A stretch of 55,686 nt of DNA from Victivallales bacterium (GTDB taxonomy: Bacteria > Verrucomicrobiota > Lentisphaeria > Oligosphaerales > Lenti-02), in assembly GCA_003245525.1 (NCBI GenBank), contig QKCY01000500.1, forward strand, positions 1 through 55,686, written 5' to 3'. The position numbers and the translations under genes are program-made. The notes beneath the pieces are model-generated. The model ran no database searches. It was not told the DNA's origin and saw only the letters and a list, made by a program, of their open reading frames with translations. Position 1 is the first letter of the stretch, and every line of letters starts with the position of its first letter. Positions 21,935 through 52,858 of this stretch are shown here, piece after piece.

Positions 21935-21987
21935 CCGTGTGACTACCGCAATATACGCGGACGGCGAGCGATGTCACTGGGAAGGGG

Positions 21988-22146
21988 GCAATGGAATGGT
22001 GGAATGGTGGAATGCCGGAATGGGAGAACGGAGGAGGGGATTGGCAGGGGCTGTGGGCTGGCGTGGCTGTTGGCACCCATTCCTCCCTGTCCGTTTTCGC
22101 CCTTTCCCCCTTCCGTCGTTCCACCATTCCATCATTCCATTATTCC
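21988..22146. repeat. GGAATG-type 8-bp tandem repeat / imperfect inverted-repeat element (short copy)
   Basis: The left arm at 21993-22024 is ggaatggt ggaatggt ggaatgcc ggaatggg. The right arm at 22119-22146 is ttccaccattccatcattccattattcc, the reverse complement of GGAATNNT units. The arms are separated by a GC-rich loop. The right arm contains the stop codon of the 22140-23906 gene. Confidence 0.8.
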
Positions 22147-23906
22147 GCGCCCTCTCCCTCCACCGCCTGCAGGCCGATATAGTCCAGCATGACCCCGTCT
22201 TCCAGATTCACCGCCTGGACCTGGACATCCCCGGCTGGCAGGTCGAGGGTCACGGCCCCCGTGACCTGGTGCCAGCGTTCGTAGACTTCGTCCGCCAACC
22301 GGACTTCCTGCCCGGCAAGCCGGAAGGCGATGCTGTTGCCGCAGCCATCGGACCACTGGACCCGGGCAAAGAGCAGAAAGCGTCCGGCGGCGGGTACCGA
22401 CAGGTGAAGCGTGGCCCGGCCGATGCCCTTGCCCCGTCCCTCGGGGATCGCCAGGGCCCTATTGCCGGAAGCACCGTCTGCCTTCACCACCTGGAATGGC
22501 GCCATGATCTCGAAGGCGTTCTCGGCCTCGACCGTGACCACGTTTGCCGGGCCGCCGCCGTAGGTGTCGGGAAGGACGACGATTCGGGGACCGTGCGTGG
22601 TCCGCCGGGGCTGGTGGAGGCCGGCCACGACCTGGTTGGCCAGACTCGGCCAATCCCGGTCGGTGCCATTCACGAGCAACGAGAGGGCCAGGAGGCAGAC
22701 CACCATGGTCCAGCAGCCCAGCACCCGCCACGGGCGGCGGTAGGAGAGCGGCTGCCCGTGGGGATCGAACGCCAGGCCGATCAGGACGCCGAGCCAGATG
22801 CCGATGCCCCGGGCCAGGGCGAGGGAGAAAAGGCCCGCTCCCATGGCCGCGATCAGAGCCACGGCCACGGCCCGGCGGTCCTGGGCTTCCTCGGGCAGCT
22901 CTCCCGGTCCCGCCCGCCAGGCGGCAAGGCAGGCCCCCAGCAACAGCCAGAACAGGCCGACCAGACCGATGGGTCCCGATTCGACCAGTGTCACCAGATA
23001 CTGGCAATTGCCGTCGCGCGGCACTTTCGAGTCGGCCGGATGGGGATCGGGCGCTCCGAAGTCGCGCAGGTGGTTGATGGCCGCTTTGTACTGGCCCAGT
23101 CCTGCCCCCAACGGCAGGCGGAGCGGGCTCCGCAACGCCAGTTCGGCCTCGATGACCGACCGTTTGAGATGGGTCTCGTCGTAGTGAGGACGTAGCCGGT
23201 CCCAGCTTCCCCGTTGGCCGGGCAGGAGCGAGGCCCCGAGCGCGAAGGGGATGGCCAGCAAGGCGAGCCGGTGGCGGCCGCCGAAGACCAAGCTGCCCAC
23301 GGCCACCACGATGCACCAGACCAGGAGCGGTCCGGCATGGGGGAAGCCCAGCCCGGCCAGTACGCCGGGAACGACCGCGAGCCAGGGACAGCCGAGGCGC
23401 CCCAAGACCAGTACGGCAAAGGGAGCCGCCAGCGTGGCATACGCCCCCCATTTCGCGGGACTAAGCCCCAGCCAGCCAAGCCCTCCCACGGCCGCCAGGA
23501 CCAGGAGGAGCAGCTCCAGTCCGGCCAGGACCCAGACCACGTTGGCCCGGACCCGCCGCCGGGTTCCGAACTGGACGAAGTAGACGGAGACCAGAGTGAT
23601 CTCGCCCAACTGGACAAGCTCCTTGGCCGTGGTCGGCAGCGTGTGCCAGTTGCCGCCAAGCAGGCCGCTGGCAAGGGCCACGGTACCGATCAGCACCGGG
23701 CGCGGCAGCCAGGGAAGGGGGCGGGCGGAGGAAACGGCGATGACCACGAACAGACCCGCGAGCAGGACCAGCGTGGGCAGCGGCAGGCCGGGGGTGAGCT
23801 GTTCCCCGCTTGCGCTGAACACCGCTCCCGGATTCCACGGCACCAGCGCCACGACCAGGACGATGGCGATGATGCCGTTGCGGACAGCTTCGTGGCGATA
23901 GGTCAC
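22140..23906 (-). CDS. Polytopic O-antigen ligase/polymerase-like (Wzy_C-type) membrane protein with C-terminal CBM-like jelly-roll domain
   Basis: At least 10 predicted hydrophobic helices. The Wzy_C-like segment is GNCQYLVTLVESGPIGLVGLFWLLLG. The C-terminal soluble domain is VVTVEAENAFEI..LHLSVPAAGRFLLFARVQW. Start re-placed at GTG 23906, with GGGAGGA 6 nt upstream and a GTGA overlap with the upstream stop. Confidence 0.7.
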   Translation of the reverse strand: MTYRHEAVRNGIIAIVLVVALVPWNPGAVFSASGEQLTPGLPLPTLVLLAGLFVVIAVSSARPLPWLPRPVLIGTVALASGLLGGNWHTLPTTAKELVQLGEITLVSVYFVQFGTRRRVRANVVWVLAGLELLLLVLAAVGGLGWLGLSPAKWGAYATLAAPFAVLVLGRLGCPWLAVVPGVLAGLGFPHAGPLLVWCIVVAVGSLVFGGRHRLALLAIPFALGASLLPGQRGSWDRLRPHYDETHLKRSVIEAELALRSPLRLPLGAGLGQYKAAINHLRDFGAPDPHPADSKVPRDGNCQYLVTLVESGPIGLVGLFWLLLGACLAAWRAGPGELPEEAQDRRAVAVALIAAMGAGLFSLALARGIGIWLGVLIGLAFDPHGQPLSYRRPWRVLGCWTMVVCLLALSLLVNGTDRDWPSLANQVVAGLHQPRRTTHGPRIVVLPDTYGGGPANVVTVEAENAFEIMAPFQVVKADGASGNRALAIPEGRGKGIGRATLHLSVPAAGRFLLFARVQWSDGCGNSIAFRLAGQEVRLADEVYERWHQVTGAVTLDLPAGDVQVQAVNLEDGVMLDYIGLQAVEGEGAE

Positions 23907-47159: not shown

Positions 47160-47225
47160 GGCCCGGCTCCTTGGTGGATTCGGCTAGCGTCTGAAAAGGG
47201 AGCATACCGTTCCCTGCCGTCCGCG

Positions 47226-48500
47226 TCAATCCAATTCCTTGAAGAACACACGCTTGGCCTTGCCTGGCTGGCGGGGCAGGGCCCCCGGCGGCAGCACGTC
47301 GCCCTTGGGCGAGAACTGGAGGCGCTCCTTGAGGTGCTTCTCCACCATGTAGCCCGTCACTCCCGCTTCGGCCTCCACGAGAATGCGGACATCGCGCACG
47401 CCGTCGTGGTCTTCGAGGATGATCTGGTACTCGGGCAGCACGCCGGGGATTTCCAGCAGGGCCTGCTCGACCTGCTTCGGGAAGAAGTTCACGCCCTTGA
47501 CGATGAGCATGTCGTCCACCCGGCCGGTGATGCGGTTGAGCCGCAGGGAGGTACGCCCGCAGGCGCAGCGCTCGCGGCTGCACAGGCTGGTCAGGTCGCC
47601 GGTGCGGAAGCGGATCACGGGGATGCCCCGGCGGCAGAGCGCGGTGAAAACCACCTCGCCGGGCTGGCCGTCGGGTACCGGTTCGCCGGTGGCGGGGTCC
47701 ACGATCTCGGTGATGTACTGGTCTTCCCAGACGTGGATGCCCGCATGGGCCGGGCAGTCCATGCCGGTGGTGCCGACGCCGCCGGTCTCGGTCATGCCGT
47801 AGATGTCGAAGGCCTCGATGCCGAGGGCGGACTCGATCTTCTTGCGCATGTTGTCGGAGAAGGTCTCCGCGCCGAAGATGCCCACCTTCAGGTTGGGCAG
47901 GTCGGTTGCCGTCTCGTCCAGCACCTCCTTGATGCGCACGGCGTAGGAGACCACGCCCATCAGGGCCTTCACCTTGAAGTCCTGCATGAGCTGGATCTGG
48001 CGGGGGGTGTTGCCCGAGCCGGTGGGAATGATGAACAGGCCCGCCTTGCGGCCGCCGTGGTAGAAGCCGAAACCGCCGTTGAAGAGCCCGAAGGAGGGGG
48101 TGATCTGAATCGCTTCGCCCTGGTCGATGCCCGCCATCCGGTAGCAGCGAGCCATGCATTCCGCCCACTGGTCCAGATCGGCGTCGGTATAGGCCATCAC
48201 CACGGGGGTGCCGGTGGACCCGGAGCTCATGTGCATTTCCCGCAACTCGTCCCGGTCCACGCAGAGCATGCCCAGCGGGTAGGTCTCCCGGAAGCTCTCC
48301 TTGCTCATGAAAGGCAGGCCGCGCAGATCGGCCAGCGAACGGATGTCGCCCGGCGCGACTCCGGCCGCCTGCATCCGCTCCCGGTAGTAGGCGTTGCGCT
48401 CGTACACCCACGCCACCGTCTCCTGCAACCGGGCCAACTGTAGGGCGGCCAGCTCGTCGCGGGACATGGTTTCGGCGCGTTCGTTCCAGTAGAGGCTCAT
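47226..48500 (-). CDS. paaK: Phenylacetate-CoA ligase family adenylate-forming enzyme
   Basis: 424 aa. Contains SSGSTGTPV, YGMTE, and a PaaK-like N-terminus (RDELAALQLARLQETV). AAGGAG lies 7 nt upstream of the ATG. Confidence 0.85.
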   Translation of the reverse strand: MSLYWNERAETMSRDELAALQLARLQETVAWVYERNAYYRERMQAAGVAPGDIRSLADLRGLPFMSKESFRETYPLGMLCVDRDELREMHMSSGSTGTPVVMAYTDADLDQWAECMARCYRMAGIDQGEAIQITPSFGLFNGGFGFYHGGRKAGLFIIPTGSGNTPRQIQLMQDFKVKALMGVVSYAVRIKEVLDETATDLPNLKVGIFGAETFSDNMRKKIESALGIEAFDIYGMTETGGVGTTGMDCPAHAGIHVWEDQYITEIVDPATGEPVPDGQPGEVVFTALCRRGIPVIRFRTGDLTSLCSRERCACGRTSLRLNRITGRVDDMLIVKGVNFFPKQVEQALLEIPGVLPEYQIILEDHDGVRDVRILVEAEAGVTGYMVEKHLKERLQFSPKGDVLPPGALPRQPGKAKRVFFKELD

Positions 48501-48645
48501 CGACCGGCTCCTTGGGCTTGCGGCACCGGGCTCCTACGCCCGGCGCATCACTCGCGATGCGAAACCGAGCAGTATAGACCTGCCCCCCACCATGTCAACG
48601 CCCCGCCATGTGGCTTGTTCCCGCCCGTTCCGGCGGACCCCCGCC

Positions 48646-48807
48646 TCACCCAAACAGCATCAGGCTTCCGCCCAGAGCCATCACCGGGCCCGCCACCTTG
48701 AAGAAGGTGCCGTATTTGGCCAGCCACTGCGTGTTCTTTTCGGCGTCCTTCGAGACGGCGACTTTGCCAAAGCCCACCAGCGTGAAGTAGATCCCGAAGA
48801 CAAGCAT
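48646..48807 (-). CDS. Possible small two-helix membrane protein (53 aa)
   Basis: MLVFGIYFTLVGFGKVAVSKDAEKNTQWLAKYGTFFKVAGPVMALGGSLMLFG. GC3-rich codons and two hydrophobic segments. I recognise no homology. Confidence 0.4.
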   Translation of the reverse strand: MLVFGIYFTLVGFGKVAVSKDAEKNTQWLAKYGTFFKVAGPVMALGGSLMLFG

Positions 48808-48814
48808 GCCTACC

Positions 48815-48848
48815 GCAGTTGTGCCCACCGTGCAGTTGTGCCCACCGT
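48815..48848. repeat. Perfect 17-bp tandem duplication (gcagttgtgcccaccgt x2)
   Basis: Read directly at 48815-48831 and 48832-48848. It lies in the intergenic region between the SDR stop and the small ORF start. Confidence 0.9.
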
Positions 48849-48895
48849 GGTTTCTCCCGTCGTGCCCCGAACTGGTCGGGGGCGCTCCCCTGGTG

Positions 48896-49672
48896 TCAAC
48901 TGTCGCTGACGGTGTAGTGGGCCTCGTCGGGTTCCTGGAGGTCGGGGCCGACGAGGTGGAGGCCACCGTCGACGTAGATGATCTGGCCGGTGATGGTCTG
49001 GGCCTGGGCCAGGAAGAGGCAGGCCTCGGCGATCTCCTCGGGGGTGGAGCGCTGGCCCATGGGCACGTAGCGGACGAGGCGCTCGATCTTCTCCGGGGCG
49101 ATGCCGGGCGGGGCGAGGACGATGCCGGGGGCCACGGCGTTCACCCGGATGCGGGGCGCCCACTGCACGGCGGCGGCCTCGGTGGCGTCGCGCAGGCTCT
49201 TCTTGGCGAAGCCGTAGGTGCCCGCCGAGGGATCGACCGTGGCCACGCGCTGGTCGAGGATGTTGATGATGTTGCCTTCCTCGCAGTACCGGGCGAAGTC
49301 CCGCATGAGCAGGAAGGGGGCCTCGAAGTTGATGAGGAAATCCTCGCGGAGGCTCTCGCTGATGACATTGGTGAGCTGGCAACGCCGGTAGACCGAGGCG
49401 TTGTTGACCAAGCAGTTCAGGCCGCGTCCGCTACCCATCAGATCAGGGATTAGCCGTTCCCGCTCGGCATCCACGAGCAAGTCGGCCTGCACCAGTTCGT
49501 GCCCCGGCGAGATCTCGTTGAGCTGGGCAAGCAGCTCGCGGGCGGGTTCCTCGCTCTGGTTGTAGTGGACCACCACCGTGGCCCCGGCCCGGGCGAACCG
49601 CAACGCGATCTGGCGGCCGATGCGGACACCGGCGCCCGTGACCAAGACACGCGTGTTGGAGAGTGGCTTCAT
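48896..49672 (-). CDS. Short-chain dehydrogenase/reductase (pteridine-reductase-like SDR)
   Basis: VLVTGAGVRIGRQIA is the cofactor motif and YGFAKKSL is the YxxxK active site. Start re-placed at ATG 49672 (MKPLSNTR). Confidence 0.85.
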   Translation of the reverse strand: MKPLSNTRVLVTGAGVRIGRQIALRFARAGATVVVHYNQSEEPARELLAQLNEISPGHELVQADLLVDAERERLIPDLMGSGRGLNCLVNNASVYRRCQLTNVISESLREDFLINFEAPFLLMRDFARYCEEGNIINILDQRVATVDPSAGTYGFAKKSLRDATEAAAVQWAPRIRVNAVAPGIVLAPPGIAPEKIERLVRYVPMGQRSTPEEIAEACLFLAQAQTITGQIIYVDGGLHLVGPDLQEPDEAHYTVSDS

Positions 49673-49770
49673 CTGGATTCTCCGCAACGGCGGAAGCGCC
49701 GTCATCATCTACCAGAAACTAGCCTTTCCCGGTGCTCTTGCCAAGAGGGTAGGCAGAATGGGGGAGGGAT

Positions 49771-49918
49771 GGAACAATGGAATAATGGAATGGTGGAATG
49801 GTGGAATGGTGGAATGGTGGAATGCGGGAATGCGGGAATGCGGGAATGCGGGAATGCGGGAATGCGGGAATGCGGGAATGCGGGAATGGTGGAATGCGGG
49901 AATGCGGGAATGCGGGAA
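49771..49918 (+). repeat. 19-unit head-to-tail 8-bp tandem array (GGAATGNN)n
   Basis: The units read ggaacaat, ggaataat, 4x ggaatggt, 8x ggaatgcg, ggaatggt, 3x ggaatgcg, then ggaagc. The junctions gcg|gg create 8 consecutive GGG tracts plus 3 more, spaced by AATGC. Confidence 0.95.
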
Positions 49919-49939
49919 GCAGCTACAGAACCCGAGGTT

Positions 49940-49966
49940 TCGTCCACGACGTCCACTTCGTCCACT
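49940..49966 (+). repeat. 3 x 9-bp tandem repeat (tcgtccacg / acgtccact / tcgtccact)
   Basis: Read directly. It sits at the centre of the repeat island, between the G-rich and C-rich halves. Confidence 0.7.
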
Positions 49967-49975
49967 TTCCCGTTT

Positions 49976-50015
49976 CCATCATTCCATCATTCCATCATTC
50001 CATCATTCCCCCATT
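49976..50015 (+). repeat. 4 perfect plus 1 variant 8-bp units ccatcatt (reverse complement of GGAATGAT-phase units): right arm of the inverted repeat
   Basis: Perfect units at 49976-83, 49984-91, 49992-99 and 50000-07, followed by cccccatt. Confidence 0.9.
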
Positions 50016-50108
50016 CCGCCCCGGAGCAGGCGGGACGCCTGCGCCACGGCATTCCATCATTCCCCCATTCCGCCCCGGAGCAGGCGGGACGCCTGCGCTA
50101 CGGCATTC
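50001..50108 (+). repeat. 54-bp direct repeat x2 (53/54 identical), each with a GCAGGCG-GGA-CGCCTGC hairpin and C5/C4 tracts
   Basis: Copy 1 is at 50001-50054 and copy 2 at 50055-50108. The only difference is gcgccacgg versus gcgctacgg. Additional cattccccc units follow, up to about 50135. Confidence 0.9.
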
Positions 50109-50203
50109 CCCCATTCCCCCATTCCGCTTCCCCCTCTTGACTTTCCCGCGTGCGGGGGGAAGGTGTGGCTTCTGTGAGGTCCGTCCAGCCCAGGAGATAT
50201 CCC

Positions 50204-52858
50204 ATGCGTTGCCTGTTTGCCGTTCTTGCCGTGGCCGCCGCCAGCCTGTGGGCGGCACCCCTGCATCTGTACGTGTCGCCGGACGGCAACGATGCCTGGT
50301 CCGGGACCGCGCCGCGCCGGGGCTGGATGCAGCGGCAGCAGGGGCCATTCCGGACGTTGGAGCGGGCGCGGGACGAGATCCAGGCCCAAAAGCCTGCCGA
50401 AGGAGCGGTGGTTGAGGTCCGGGGCGGCGTCTACGAATTGGCCCAGCCCTTTGCCTTGACCGAAGCCGATGCGGCACCAGCAGGAGCCCGTATCGTCTAT
50501 CGCAACTACCGGGACGAGTCGGTCCGGCTGCTGGCGGGCAAGCGTGTCCACGAATTCCTGCCGGTACCTGCCGAGCAACTGGCGCGGATACCCGAGGAGG
50601 CCCGTCCGCACGTGGTGCAGGTCGATCTGAAGGCCCTCGGGCTGACCGAGATTGGTGAGCCCACCACCGGCGGCATCGAGGTCTTCTGCGACGGGGTGCC
50701 CTTGTCCCGGTCGCGCTACCCCAACGAGGGCTTCATGACCGTCTCCAAGGTCAGTGATCGCGATCCCAAGGAGAGCCACGGCCGCAAGGGTAGCATGTAC
50801 GGGGAGATCTGGTTCGATGATCCGCGCGGCCAGCGTTGGGCCGGGGAAAGCGATCTGTGGACCCACGGCTACTGGTTCTGGGACTGGGCCGACCAGCGTC
50901 ACAAGGTGGTGGAGTTCGATCCCGCCGCCGGCCGGATGCTCTTCCCCCAGCCGTTCCATGGCTACGGCTACCGCAAGGGGGCCTGGTTCTACGTCTACAA
51001 CTGTCTGAGCGAGATCGACCAGCCCGGCGAGTGGCAGCTCGACACCGCGACCGGCATCCTCACTCTGTGGCCGCCCCAGGACCCGGCCCGGGCCGAGATC
51101 TTCGTCTCGGTCCTGCCCACCGTGGTTACGCTGGCGAAGGCCAACAACGTCACCTTGCACGGCTTCGTCCTCGAAGGCGCGCGCGGCACTGCCCTCCAGG
51201 CCAGCAATGTGAGCAACGTCCGCATCGAGACCTGCGTGGTCCGCAACTGCGGCGGCAGCGGCATCTCCCTCTCCGGGCGCGACAGCCAGGTGGTGGGCTG
51301 CGACCTCTACAACCTCGGTGATGGCGGCATCAACCTCACCGGCGGCGACCGGACCACCCTGACCAAGGCCAATCTGCTGGCCGAGAACAACCACATCCAC
51401 CACTACGCCCGCATCAACCGGGTCTACCGGCCCGGCATCAACCTGCAAGGCGTCGGCAACGTGGCCCGTCACAACCTGATCCACGACGCCCCCCACATGG
51501 CCATGGGCTTCGGCGGCAACGACCACCTGATCGAGCTGAACGAGGTCCATTCGGTCTGCTACGAGTCCAACGACGCCGGGGCCATCTACACGGGGCGGGA
51601 CTGGACCCAGCGCGGCACCGTTCTTCGCTACAACTACCTGCACGACATCAGCGGCTTCCAGGGCAAGGGCTGCATGGGCATCTATCTCGACGACATGTTC
51701 TCCGGCACCACCATCGAGCGGAACCTGTTCGTGAACGTCACCTCCGCCGCCTTCGTCGGCGGTGGCCGGGACAACGTGATCGACAACAACATCTTCATCG
51801 ACTGCCGTCCTGCCGTCCATGTGGACGCCCGTGGGGTTGGCTGGGCCAAGGGCGCCGTTCCCGGCGTCATGACCGAACGCCTGGAGAAGAGCCCCTACAA
51901 CACGGAGCTGTGGAAACAGCGCTGGCCCCAACTGCAGACCATTCTGCGCAACGATCCCGGCCTGCCCATGGGCACCCGGGTCACCCACAACATCTGCGTC
52001 GGCGGGCGTTGGAGCAGTATCGAGGGCAAGGCCCGGCCCTGCGTCACGCTGGCGGACAACCTGGTGGACGTCGATCCCGGCTTCCGCGATGCGGCCAAGG
52101 GCGACTACCGGCTGCGCGTGGATTCGCCAGCCCGGGACTTCAACTTCCAGCCCATTCCCTGTCCCGCCATCGGCCTCTACAAGGACAGCCTGCGGGCCAG
52201 TTGGCCGGTGACGTCCACGGTCCGCCCCACCGAGACCCCGCCGCCTGCGGCCGTCCGCCAGAGGAACCAGGGCCCCACCTACTCCGTGGTCCACGTCGAG
52301 CCGGGCACCATCCAGATCGACGGCAAGGCCACCGACTGGCAGGCCGACCCCAAGCAGGCCATGGTCTGCGCCGTCCCGCCCTGCGGCGAAGCCTCCAAGT
52401 ACCAGTCCCTGGCTTGGCTCGCCTGCGATGGGGAGGCCCTGTATCTCCTGGTCAAGACTCCGGTCGATCCCGCCAAGCCGCTCAAAACCGGCGACACCTG
52501 GGGCCAGGAGGACGCCTTCGAGATCGCTTTCCGCGACCTCTCGGCCCCCAAGAGCCCCATCTTCAACCTGCGCGGTTTCGCCGGCGGCCAGTCCAGCAGC
52601 GTCAGCGATGCCGGGGCCAGCCCGGCGCAGGCCGCCGCCGTCGGCAAGGCCATGACCTATGCCGCCACCCGCGAAGCCGACTACTGGCTGGGCGAGTTCC
52701 GCATCCCCCTCGCCGCCTGCGGCATCAAGCCCGATGTGGCCAAGCTCGCCTTCAACGTGAACGTCCGCCGCCTGGCCGACAATACCTGGATGGTCTGGGC
52801 CACCACCGGCGGCCCCGTCTGGGACGTGGACTACGCGGGTGTGCTGTTGCTGAAATGA
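50204..52858 (+). CDS. Secreted right-handed parallel beta-helix protein with C-terminal CBM9/DOMON-like domain
   Basis: Signal peptide MRCLFAVLAVAAASLWA. N-cap YVSPDGNDAWSG. Successive coils include NVTLHGFVLEGARGTAL, NVRIETCVVRNCGGSGI and QVVGCDLYNLGDGGINL. The C-terminus has IQIDGKATDWQ..EDAFEIAF. AGGAGA lies 6 nt upstream of ATG 50204. Confidence 0.8.
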   Translation: MRCLFAVLAVAAASLWAAPLHLYVSPDGNDAWSGTAPRRGWMQRQQGPFRTLERARDEIQAQKPAEGAVVEVRGGVYELAQPFALTEADAAPAGARIVYRNYRDESVRLLAGKRVHEFLPVPAEQLARIPEEARPHVVQVDLKALGLTEIGEPTTGGIEVFCDGVPLSRSRYPNEGFMTVSKVSDRDPKESHGRKGSMYGEIWFDDPRGQRWAGESDLWTHGYWFWDWADQRHKVVEFDPAAGRMLFPQPFHGYGYRKGAWFYVYNCLSEIDQPGEWQLDTATGILTLWPPQDPARAEIFVSVLPTVVTLAKANNVTLHGFVLEGARGTALQASNVSNVRIETCVVRNCGGSGISLSGRDSQVVGCDLYNLGDGGINLTGGDRTTLTKANLLAENNHIHHYARINRVYRPGINLQGVGNVARHNLIHDAPHMAMGFGGNDHLIELNEVHSVCYESNDAGAIYTGRDWTQRGTVLRYNYLHDISGFQGKGCMGIYLDDMFSGTTIERNLFVNVTSAAFVGGGRDNVIDNNIFIDCRPAVHVDARGVGWAKGAVPGVMTERLEKSPYNTELWKQRWPQLQTILRNDPGLPMGTRVTHNICVGGRWSSIEGKARPCVTLADNLVDVDPGFRDAAKGDYRLRVDSPARDFNFQPIPCPAIGLYKDSLRASWPVTSTVRPTETPPPAAVRQRNQGPTYSVVHVEPGTIQIDGKATDWQADPKQAMVCAVPPCGEASKYQSLAWLACDGEALYLLVKTPVDPAKPLKTGDTWGQEDAFEIAFRDLSAPKSPIFNLRGFAGGQSSSVSDAGASPAQAAAVGKAMTYAATREADYWLGEFRIPLAACGIKPDVAKLAFNVNVRRLADNTWMVWATTGGPVWDVDYAGVLLLK

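Follow-up and report, generated by a model that had tools for sequence, protein, structure and literature searches.

Divergent genes and the repeats between them

The window analysed here is a stretch of 55,686 nucleotides of an uncultured Victivallales bacterium (contig QKCY01000500.1). Towards its end a gene encoding an SDR-family oxidoreductase (minus strand) and a gene encoding a secreted right-handed beta-helix protein (plus strand) point away from each other across a gap of 531 bp, with the ATG of the SDR gene at 49672 and the start of the beta-helix gene at 50204. The gap holds a 379-bp palindromic block in which some 19 GGAATGNN units face 11 NNCATTCC units, the second arm being interrupted by two tandemly duplicated stem-loops of the repetitive extragenic palindrome (REP) type (Table 1). 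The block is a lineage-specific, length-variable and non-coding insertion or expansion of simple-sequence units together with a hairpin element of dispersed occurrence. Its class, the fast-changing intergenic simple repeats with units of 7-8 nt, is known and widespread. A dedicated regulatory role for the SDR gene or the beta-helix gene is not indicated.

Tandem Repeats Finder, run on the window, called four arrays within 49673-50203: one of period 8 at 49787-49918 (16.5 copies, 95% matches), one of period 9 at 49939-49967 (3.2 copies), another of period 8 at 49974-50017 (5.5 copies) and one of period 54 at 49996-50127 (2.4 copies, 96% matches). With at most one mismatch, GGAATGNNGGAATG matches the window 30 times where 0.33 matches are expected, and all 30 fall within this block and a second, smaller locus. 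The four repeat sets described in an earlier note on this DNA are real features of the sequence, at the positions given there and far beyond chance. Read in the register of 49771, the left arm consists of GGAACAAT, GGAATAAT, four GGAATGGT, eight GGAATGCG, one GGAATGGT, three GGAATGCG and GGAAGCAG; these are the 19 units, eight of them consecutive GGAATGCG, that the note had counted, the number being that of the assembly, of which independent contigs confirm the array edges and not the interior count. Outward of this arm, degenerate G-rich units extend as far as 49747. The right arm comprises four CCATCATT units (49976-50007) and the repeated 54-bp unit with the GCAGGCG-GGA-CGCCTGC hairpin in two copies, which agrees with the earlier description, as do the length of the gap and the non-coding nature of the block, which lies between the genes and is absent from relatives with the same genes. 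The NN dinucleotides of the units differ between the arms (GT or CG in the left arm; GG, AT or CC in the right arm, read as reverse complement) and identical unit variants are grouped in blocks, suggesting that each arm was amplified independently.

Table 1. Features of the repeat block, its flanking genes and the second locus (positions in the window)
Feature	Position	Strand	Remarks
SDR-family oxidoreductase gene, 258 aa	48896..49672	-	Pfam adh_short_C2, 1.2e-37
Secreted right-handed beta-helix protein gene, 884 aa	50204..52858	+	Pfam Beta_helix, 4.8e-13
Putative SDR promoter	49716..49744	-	-10 TAGTTT at 49716-49721 and -35 TTGGCA at 49739-49744 (both read as reverse complement), 17 nt apart
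Putative beta-helix -35 box, TTGACT	50137..50142	+	CTTGAC[AT] invariant
Lineage-specific palindromic satellite, 379 bp	49747..50125	.	Excision restores collinearity with the intergenic regions of relatives; inverted repeats I1-I4
Left arm, 19 head-to-tail GGAATGNN units including eight GGAATGCG	49771..49918	+
Predicted canonical G3-N(1-7) quadruplex motif, (GGGAATGC)n	49826..49884	+	Regular expression; G4Hunter about 1.2-1.3
Central palindrome spacer with three 9-bp repeats (TTCGTCCAC-type, 49939-49967)	49919..49973	.
Right arm, 11 CATTCC units grouped as 5 + 3 + 3	49974..50125	+
REP-type stem-loop, copy 1: GTGG-C-GCAGGCG-TCC-CGCCTGC	50026..50047	-
REP-type stem-loop, copy 2: GTAG-C-GCAGGCG-TCC-CGCCTGC	50080..50101	-	Also in L276
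Locus 2, arm A: GGAATGGT, GGAATGGT, GGAATGCC, GGAATG(GG)	21993..22022	+
Locus 2, arm B: 4.5 CATTCC-type units	22111..22146	+
Putative cdaA promoter, GTGACA-16 nt-TATATT	21950..21977	-	Scan, 10/12 matches; invariant in four lineages

Relatives, independent assemblies and a second locus

The divergent arrangement of the two genes is kept in four relative lineages at 77-84% nucleotide identity (L120/L122, L124/L125, L277-L284 from several samples, and L293), and beta-helix orthologues at 77-78% identity retain the pairing with the SDR gene. In all four lineages the intergenic region is only 94-186 bp long and free of repeats, one of these regions being the same, or almost the same, across eight contigs that stem from different samples, and when 49747-50125 is excised the window becomes collinear with each of them. 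The elements in common are a CTAG-containing box, a minus-strand -35 box that reads TTGGCA in the window and TTGAAA or TTGACA in the relatives, a spacer of 12-17 bp and the sequence CTTGAC[AT], which is invariant across the window, L276, L120, L124 and L278; the positions of the putative -10 and -35 hexamers of the SDR gene are likewise conserved in L120, L124 and L278. The earlier assignment of the gap as a divergent promoter region is upheld by this conservation of both -35 boxes, from which the two promoters are proposed; consensus scans of 49500-50400 called neither of them (0 promoter-like and 0 terminator-like sites), and no -10 box was identified for the beta-helix gene. The divergent -35 boxes are 12-17 bp apart in the four relatives versus 392 bp in the window, and the repeat block fills the spacer between them exactly, upstream of both putative -35 boxes and outside the 5' untranslated regions and the open reading frames. 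About 152 kb (redundant) of DNA of the relatives yielded no 7-8-nt arrays and no REP-like hairpins.

Logan contigs, which are independent assemblies of this strain from another run, agree exactly with the window at both loci until the repeats break the contig. L275 covers the left edge of the block (99.6% identical) and ends inside the array, and L292 covers the CATTCC arm of the second locus with the same four units (100% identical) and also has the sequence of its GGAATG arm unchanged; the arrays are therefore no artefact of a single assembly. A diverged relative, L276 (about 90% nucleotide identity), was reached through the 90% cluster of the beta-helix protein, an exact-protein look-up having given nothing. 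Its contig begins inside the second hairpin, shares the right arm and the REP hairpin with the window and has two CATTCC units, versus three in the window, preceding the same TTGACT box. Taken together, the Logan contigs and the comparison with L276 show that the block is real, predates the split from L276 and varies in unit number. The grouping of identical units in blocks and the two versus three terminal units also support slippage as the source of change, as was proposed earlier.

The earlier note had advised a search for more copies of the element, and the window contains one; this copy, like the absence of the array from relatives and the wide dispersal of the hairpin, had escaped the note. 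At this second, smaller locus (21993-22146) four GGAATGNN units face four CATTCC-type units across a spacer of 88 nt, so that of the 7-8-nt arrays in the 55 kb window, 2/2 are of the GGAATG type and 2/2 are inverted pairs. The sense strand is the minus strand here: the TAA stop codon of the upstream gene (22140-22142) lies inside the first unit, GGAATAAT, and the array ends 15 nt short of the -35 box of cdaA, for which the best named CdaA matches are annotated as Victivallales or Lentisphaeria. The sense RNA is predicted to form a hairpin of -93.6 kcal/mol (z = -4.5). As at the first locus, the array is absent from orthologues (L285, at 82% nucleotide identity, and L289-L291). The three promoters next to the two arrays have CATTCC units 11-26 nt upstream of the -35 box in the same orientation, and the arrays end 2-15 nt from these three boxes. 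Since the second copy stands in an unrelated context, the architecture is a dispersed feature of this genome that was not built for the SDR and beta-helix promoters.

Some further observations concern the surroundings of both loci. The gene upstream of cdaA has lost its ancestral TAG stop (22140-22170, minus strand, versus L285 3380-3395), gains three codons (GGC GCG GAA) and ends at the TAA provided by the first repeat unit. A G-rich stretch on the stop-codon side of this locus was considered as a conserved array terminus and rejected, as it is ancestral coding sequence, and the 678-aa open reading frame beside the locus proved unrelated to the 678-aa protein beside the SDR gene in L124. The exact 258-aa SDR product is present in the protein collection, where its cluster has members with the name 'SDR family oxidoreductase [Victivallales bacterium]'. 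Together with the CdaA matches, these annotations place the contig in an uncultured member of the Planctomycetes-Verrucomicrobia-Chlamydiae (PVC) superphylum. The beta-helix gene has AGGAGA 6 nt upstream of its ATG; its protein family is very large (3009 homologues at E <= 1e-20) and includes versions of about 1500 aa with TPR domains in metagenome-assembled genomes annotated as Hydrogenedentes. Downstream of the SDR gene, about 1.7 kb of the window (47173-48913) is missing between the FHA and SDR genes of the relatives. This stretch carries a gene for an AMP-binding (acyl-CoA ligase-like) protein (47226-48500) and probably an open reading frame for a small membrane protein (around 48646-48808). 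A perfect 17-nt direct repeat, GCAGTTGTGCCCACCGT, occurs in 2.1 copies at 48815-48849, within the gap that follows the SDR stop codon.

Folding, the hairpin and arrays in other genomes

Each strand of the block folds into one long hairpin (z = -7.6 and -9.1 as RNA, -6.0 as DNA), in line with the long imperfect palindrome recognised before. The arms had been described as complementary save one position that would form a G-U pair. This holds only for the five GGAATGGT units; in the 11 GGAATGCG units just the hexamer core is paired, giving 2x2 internal loops every 8 nt in the predicted fold, and in the predicted RNA fold the GGAAUG cores are paired with CAUUCC in 6-bp helices and do not lie in loops. 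The arms of the palindrome are at least 55 nt apart and mismatched every 8 bp. A long spacer and regular mismatches strongly disfavour the extrusion of a cruciform, which is therefore unlikely at this locus. The quadruplex rule, thought to be satisfied on both strands, is satisfied on the plus strand, where 49826-49884 is the longest canonical motif of the window; on the minus strand of 49673-50203 a regular expression found no G3-N(1-7) motif, and the C5 tracts of that strand bring G4Hunter down to -2.24 at 50108. Canonical motifs are not rare in the window, which has 67% GC (n=6 on the plus strand and n=4 on the minus strand). A quadruplex at the array is thus possible on the plus strand by the regular-expression rule and borderline by G4Hunter. 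Rfam searches with gathering thresholds (window) and with E-value thresholds (region) returned only sub-threshold matches to miRNA precursors, as any long hairpin does.

The stem-loop within the 54-bp unit has the build of a REP element: it falls in the range of 20-40 nt, has a GTAG or GTGG end followed by C, and consists of a 7-bp stem with a 3-nt loop. By their sequence, the head tetranucleotides and the loop carry the signature of GTAG-tagged REP elements. Within the window it occurs only between the SDR and beta-helix genes, as two adjacent copies that are part of the tandem duplication, but the 22-mer has at least 120 exact matches in metagenomes, in at least 106 unique contexts. Among the matches listed, the contigs have a GC content of 49-75%, the conserved core is ccGGAGCAGGCGGGACGCCTGCGCTcCcag, the heads are GGAG (111), GTAG (46), GTAA (7) and GTGG (5), the loop is TCC or TCT, and the hairpin is often paired with its own reverse complement. 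The family is not in Rfam, and a literature search for the hairpin sequence yielded no paper quoting it. No gene for a REP-associated tyrosine transposase (RAYT) was found in a small sample, namely the 10 small open reading frames of the window and three open reading frames flanking the hairpin in metagenomes. The idea that 7-8-nt arrays cluster beside REP hairpins was rejected, as the metagenome loci showed no clear association. We also noted a conserved element of about 200 nt that includes the hairpin and recurs with differing flanks in many contigs of a few metagenomes (L157, L162, L167, L174, L177, L180, L194, L197, L233, L249, L258 and L271); it resembles a miniature inverted-repeat transposable element (MITE) or the end of an insertion sequence (IS) element. 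In L245 (1128-1370) the hairpin lies within an 80-nt unit present in at least three tandem copies.

Arrays of the GGAATG type are found in many other genomes. A scan of one genome per species for four consecutive GGAATGNN units gave at least 119 genome loci, and those listed span Bacteroidota, Acidobacteriota, Verrucomicrobiota, Planctomycetota, Gemmatimonadota, Calditrichia, Lentisphaerae, cyanobacteria and others. We rejected the reading of this cross-phylum recurrence as a conserved function: in a composition-matched control on viral contigs, GGAATG formed 12 arrays of four 8-nt units versus 9 for the reversed hexamer GTAAGG and 9 for the shuffled hexamer GAGTAG, and the core is therefore not special. 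In the listed genomes with GGAATGNN arrays, arrays of other sequence are frequent too, 38 with period 7 and 24 with period 8 (GGAATG excluded), against 3-8 for each of the periods 6 and 9-12. The NN positions of the GGAATGNN arrays elsewhere are mostly AT, AA or TA, without G3 tracts. Among the loci listed, inverted pairs number 10 in genomes and two in metagenomes, most arrays of the wider sample having no detectable inverted partner, and in genomes with several copies these share only the unit, without conserved flanks or spacers. Inverted pairs of heptamer arrays with unrelated units exist in other environmental genomes as well, for instance AACGCTC/GAGCGTT in L230 (5827-5930), AGTTCTT/AAGAACT in L242 (5141-5245) and GGTTTCA/TGAAACC in L088 (2304-2599), and the palindromic layout is hence not tied to GGAATG. 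Literature searches for GGAATG repeats gave nothing specific.

Origin of the block and its relation to known repeats

We lean, with somewhat more confidence than doubt, towards a lineage-specific simple-sequence satellite with REP elements that grows by slippage in unconstrained intergenic DNA. Starting from two ancestral back-to-back promoters with a short spacer, arrays would have been seeded in the spacer DNA and would then have grown and shrunk by replication slippage and local tandem duplication, with the two arms changing independently of each other. For the flanking genes the consequence would be passive, namely that their promoters were moved from 12-17 bp to 392 bp apart and that a length-unstable tract was created between them; a passive effect seems most likely because the block fills the one free stretch of DNA between the -35 boxes and leaves both core promoters intact. 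Where the palindrome is transcribed, as may be the case after the stop codon at the second locus, it would form a long 3' stem-loop similar to those of REP elements and bacterial interspersed mosaic elements (BIMEs).

Several observations weigh against this explanation. Slippage by itself does not account for the same hexamer core at two unrelated loci within 55 kb that hold no other 7-8-nt array, nor does simple slippage explain the inverted-pair layout at both of them; the array persists in L276 at about 90% nucleotide identity and is thus not ephemeral; and the identically oriented CATTCC units, 11-26 nt upstream of three -35 boxes, resemble an upstream binding array. Positional biases were seen among the loci listed: co-directional gaps have the GGAATG strand as sense strand in 28 cases versus 12 (p = 0.017), the array starts at most 15 nt from the upstream stop codon in 22/46, and the order GGAATG...CATTCC outnumbers the reverse by 9 to 1 in pairs of the GGAATG type. 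The reuse of the unit, the inverted pairs and these biases keep a sequence-specific partner as an alternative.

Such a partner could be a lineage-specific DNA-binding protein (nucleoid-associated, or IHF/HU-like) that coats the 8-bp units in a protein-binding array or insulator, the outward CATTCC arms serving as upstream elements and the inward palindrome blocking incoming transcription. We hold this to be unlikely, and we know of no candidate protein. The use of one unit type at two loci, the array ends 2-15 nt from three -35 boxes with CATTCC in constant orientation and the persistence in L276 speak for it, together with the precedent of Geobacter, where 24 pairs of inverted sites were interpreted as targets of a global regulator (PMC2700814). 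However, successive sites 8 bp apart lie on different faces of the helix, there is free variation in the NN positions and in the unit counts, relatives with the same promoters do without the array, control hexamers are just as frequent in arrays, and the constant orientation is an automatic outcome of any GGAATG...CATTCC palindrome. A broader proposal, to which we give a similarly low likelihood, is that inverted pairs of genome-specific 7-8-nt arrays are a distinct, under-described class of elements, seeded and maintained by a binding protein or a mobilising enzyme and acting as two-way insulators; the arrays would reach from one gene's stop codon to a point shortly upstream of the next -35 box, combining a hairpin or R-loop barrier to incoming transcription with an identically oriented upstream array for the outward promoters. 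A shade less probable is a MITE-like non-autonomous element with tandem 8-mers as terminal inverted repeats, that is as multiple transposase-binding sites, inserted at both loci and later expanded. It would fit the inverted arms at both loci, the clean presence/absence polymorphism with respect to the relatives and the IS elements that keep a constant distance to paired octamer sites in Geobacter, but the two copies in the window share only the 8-nt unit and have unrelated spacers, a comparison with the empty sites shows no target-site duplication at the junctions, where the DNA is poorly conserved, none of the 10 small open reading frames of the window encodes a transposase, and in other genomes the multiple copies have unrelated flanks and spacers and many arrays lack a partner.

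At the RNA level, a REP- or BIME-like 3' hairpin might act as a terminator-like barrier, as a stabiliser of the 3' end or as a brake on translation near the stop codon, a role that is about as doubtful as transposition. At the second locus the array does start at the stop codon and end before the cdaA promoter, and among the loci listed the closeness to sense-strand stop codons given above is accompanied by an over-representation of convergent gaps (18/67). Liang, Rudd and Deutscher reportedly found in 2015 that REPs located up to about 15 nt away from a stop codon lower the translation of the upstream gene. Nevertheless, there is no U-tract or terminator call, most arrays have no inverted partner, and the first locus lies upstream of both putative promoters, so that neither flanking mRNA should contain it. 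A switch based on non-B DNA, in which a quadruplex, i-motif, slipped structure or cruciform absorbs the negative supercoils arising between the divergent promoters and so couples or uncouples them, is quite improbable: the array holds the longest canonical quadruplex motif of the window, the other strand reaches the strongly negative G4Hunter value given above, the block sits exactly between the divergent promoters and its single strands fold strongly, but the G4Hunter score of the array itself is only about 1.2-1.3, the minus strand has no canonical motif, most arrays elsewhere lack G3 tracts, the arms are distant and mismatched, and the same type of repeat occurs at a locus that is not divergent. 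Of the switches put forward in the earlier note, the cruciform thus finds no support, and what stands of the quadruplex is a borderline motif on one strand in a window where such motifs are common. The same note had proposed phase-variable expression through slippage and a GGA-rich decoy RNA. We regard a contingency locus with an on/off switch, or a decoy RNA titrating a CsrA-like protein, as very improbable. The terminal units do differ in number between the window and L276 and a GGA motif recurs every 8 nt, but the array is outside both putative core promoters and both untranslated regions, a consensus scan showed no promoter or terminator of a small RNA, no Rfam match was found, the GGA motifs are predicted to be paired and the hexamer is not special. 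With the block upstream of both putative -35 boxes, changes in the number of units cannot work as they do at the known promoter contingency loci, and classical phase variation finds no support. An assembly artefact, which was to be considered because repeats break short-read assemblies and because the interior run of eight identical units comes from one assembly, is the least probable of all, since the array edges at both loci recur in contigs of another run and the diverged L276 has the right arm.

The main value of the satellite reading is a correction: a striking structure invites a regulatory explanation, and the relatives show it to be a recent add-on between promoters that were already complete. 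It also shows where satellites are tolerated, namely exactly between a stop codon or a -35 box and the next -35 box, and that a hairpin tagged with GT(A/G)G is dispersed over many environmental genomes as an exactly conserved 22-mer. The wider question is why the same unit is used at many sites of one genome. Should a sequence-specific partner exist, the arrays would mark cis elements of a new type, found genome-wide in phyla that have been little studied.

Among known systems, the contingency loci summarised in PMC4679880, such as the poly-G tract of uspA1 and the AGAT repeat of uspA2 in Moraxella, resemble the block in that a slippage-prone tract lies by the promoter of a gene for a secreted protein. 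In the cases covered by that summary the tract is located between the -35 and -10 boxes or in the 5' untranslated region or open reading frame, whereas here it is upstream of both -35 boxes. GTAG-tagged REPs have been reported in the PVC superphylum (PMC3733652), and the 22-nt stem-loop GT(A/G)G-C-GCAGGCG-TCC-CGCCTGC resembles these elements, BIMEs and REP doublets (REPINs) in head and size (PMC3733652, PMC2817692, PMC3116915) as well as in being dispersed and often present as inverted pairs. It differs in that the window has only two adjacent copies, both within the satellite, that the commonest head among the metagenome matches listed is GGAG, and that the small sample of sequences searched contained no RAYT gene.

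The TAACTGA heptamer repeats of marine Beggiatoaceae, cyanobacteria and Bacteroidetes, whose close relatives have shorter, repeat-free intergenic regions (PMC4679880), are similar in that a genome prefers one unit at its intergenic sites (many there, two in the window) and that this unit turns up in distant phyla, with no known mechanism of spreading. They are mostly present in 2-6 copies just upstream of start codons, for which translational control was suggested (PMC4679880), whereas the longer arrays described here are found at stop codons or upstream of promoters and come as inverted pairs. The block likewise shares the properties of long simple sequence repeats (LSSRs): units of 5-11 nt, among which heptamers are the commonest and for which slippage was proposed (Mrazek et al. 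2007 as summarised in PMC4679880). Its unit falls in this range, is repeated head to tail to a length beyond chance, is non-coding and is not a multiple of 3 in length. As far as that summary describes them, LSSRs and the heptameric short tandemly repeated repetitive (STRR) sequences of cyanobacteria have the same head-to-tail short units, intergenic position and patchy, lineage-specific occurrence, and units of 7-8 nt dominate in them as they do in the genomes with GGAATGNN arrays. The octamer with its GGAATG core, the facing inverted pairs and a palindrome of up to 379 bp set the present arrays apart from that description.

The closest layout was described for Geobacter metallireducens, which has 24 pairs of inverted sites, each made of four tandem octamers GTTGCTYN, that are genome-specific (PMC2700814, supplementary figure S3) and were interpreted as binding sites of a regulator or of IHF/HU (PMC2700814). 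The consensus GTTGCTYN and the IS elements at a fixed distance that accompany those pairs were not seen at the two loci in the window, where the unit is GGAATGNN, and the first locus has 19 and 11 units instead of about four, a number that the second locus does match (4 versus 4). In both organisms tandem octamers are paired on opposite strands at a variable distance, and the Geobacter pairs are also multicopy and absent from sister species (PMC2700814), indicating that short octamer arrays can form long palindromes in PVC bacteria as they do in Geobacter.

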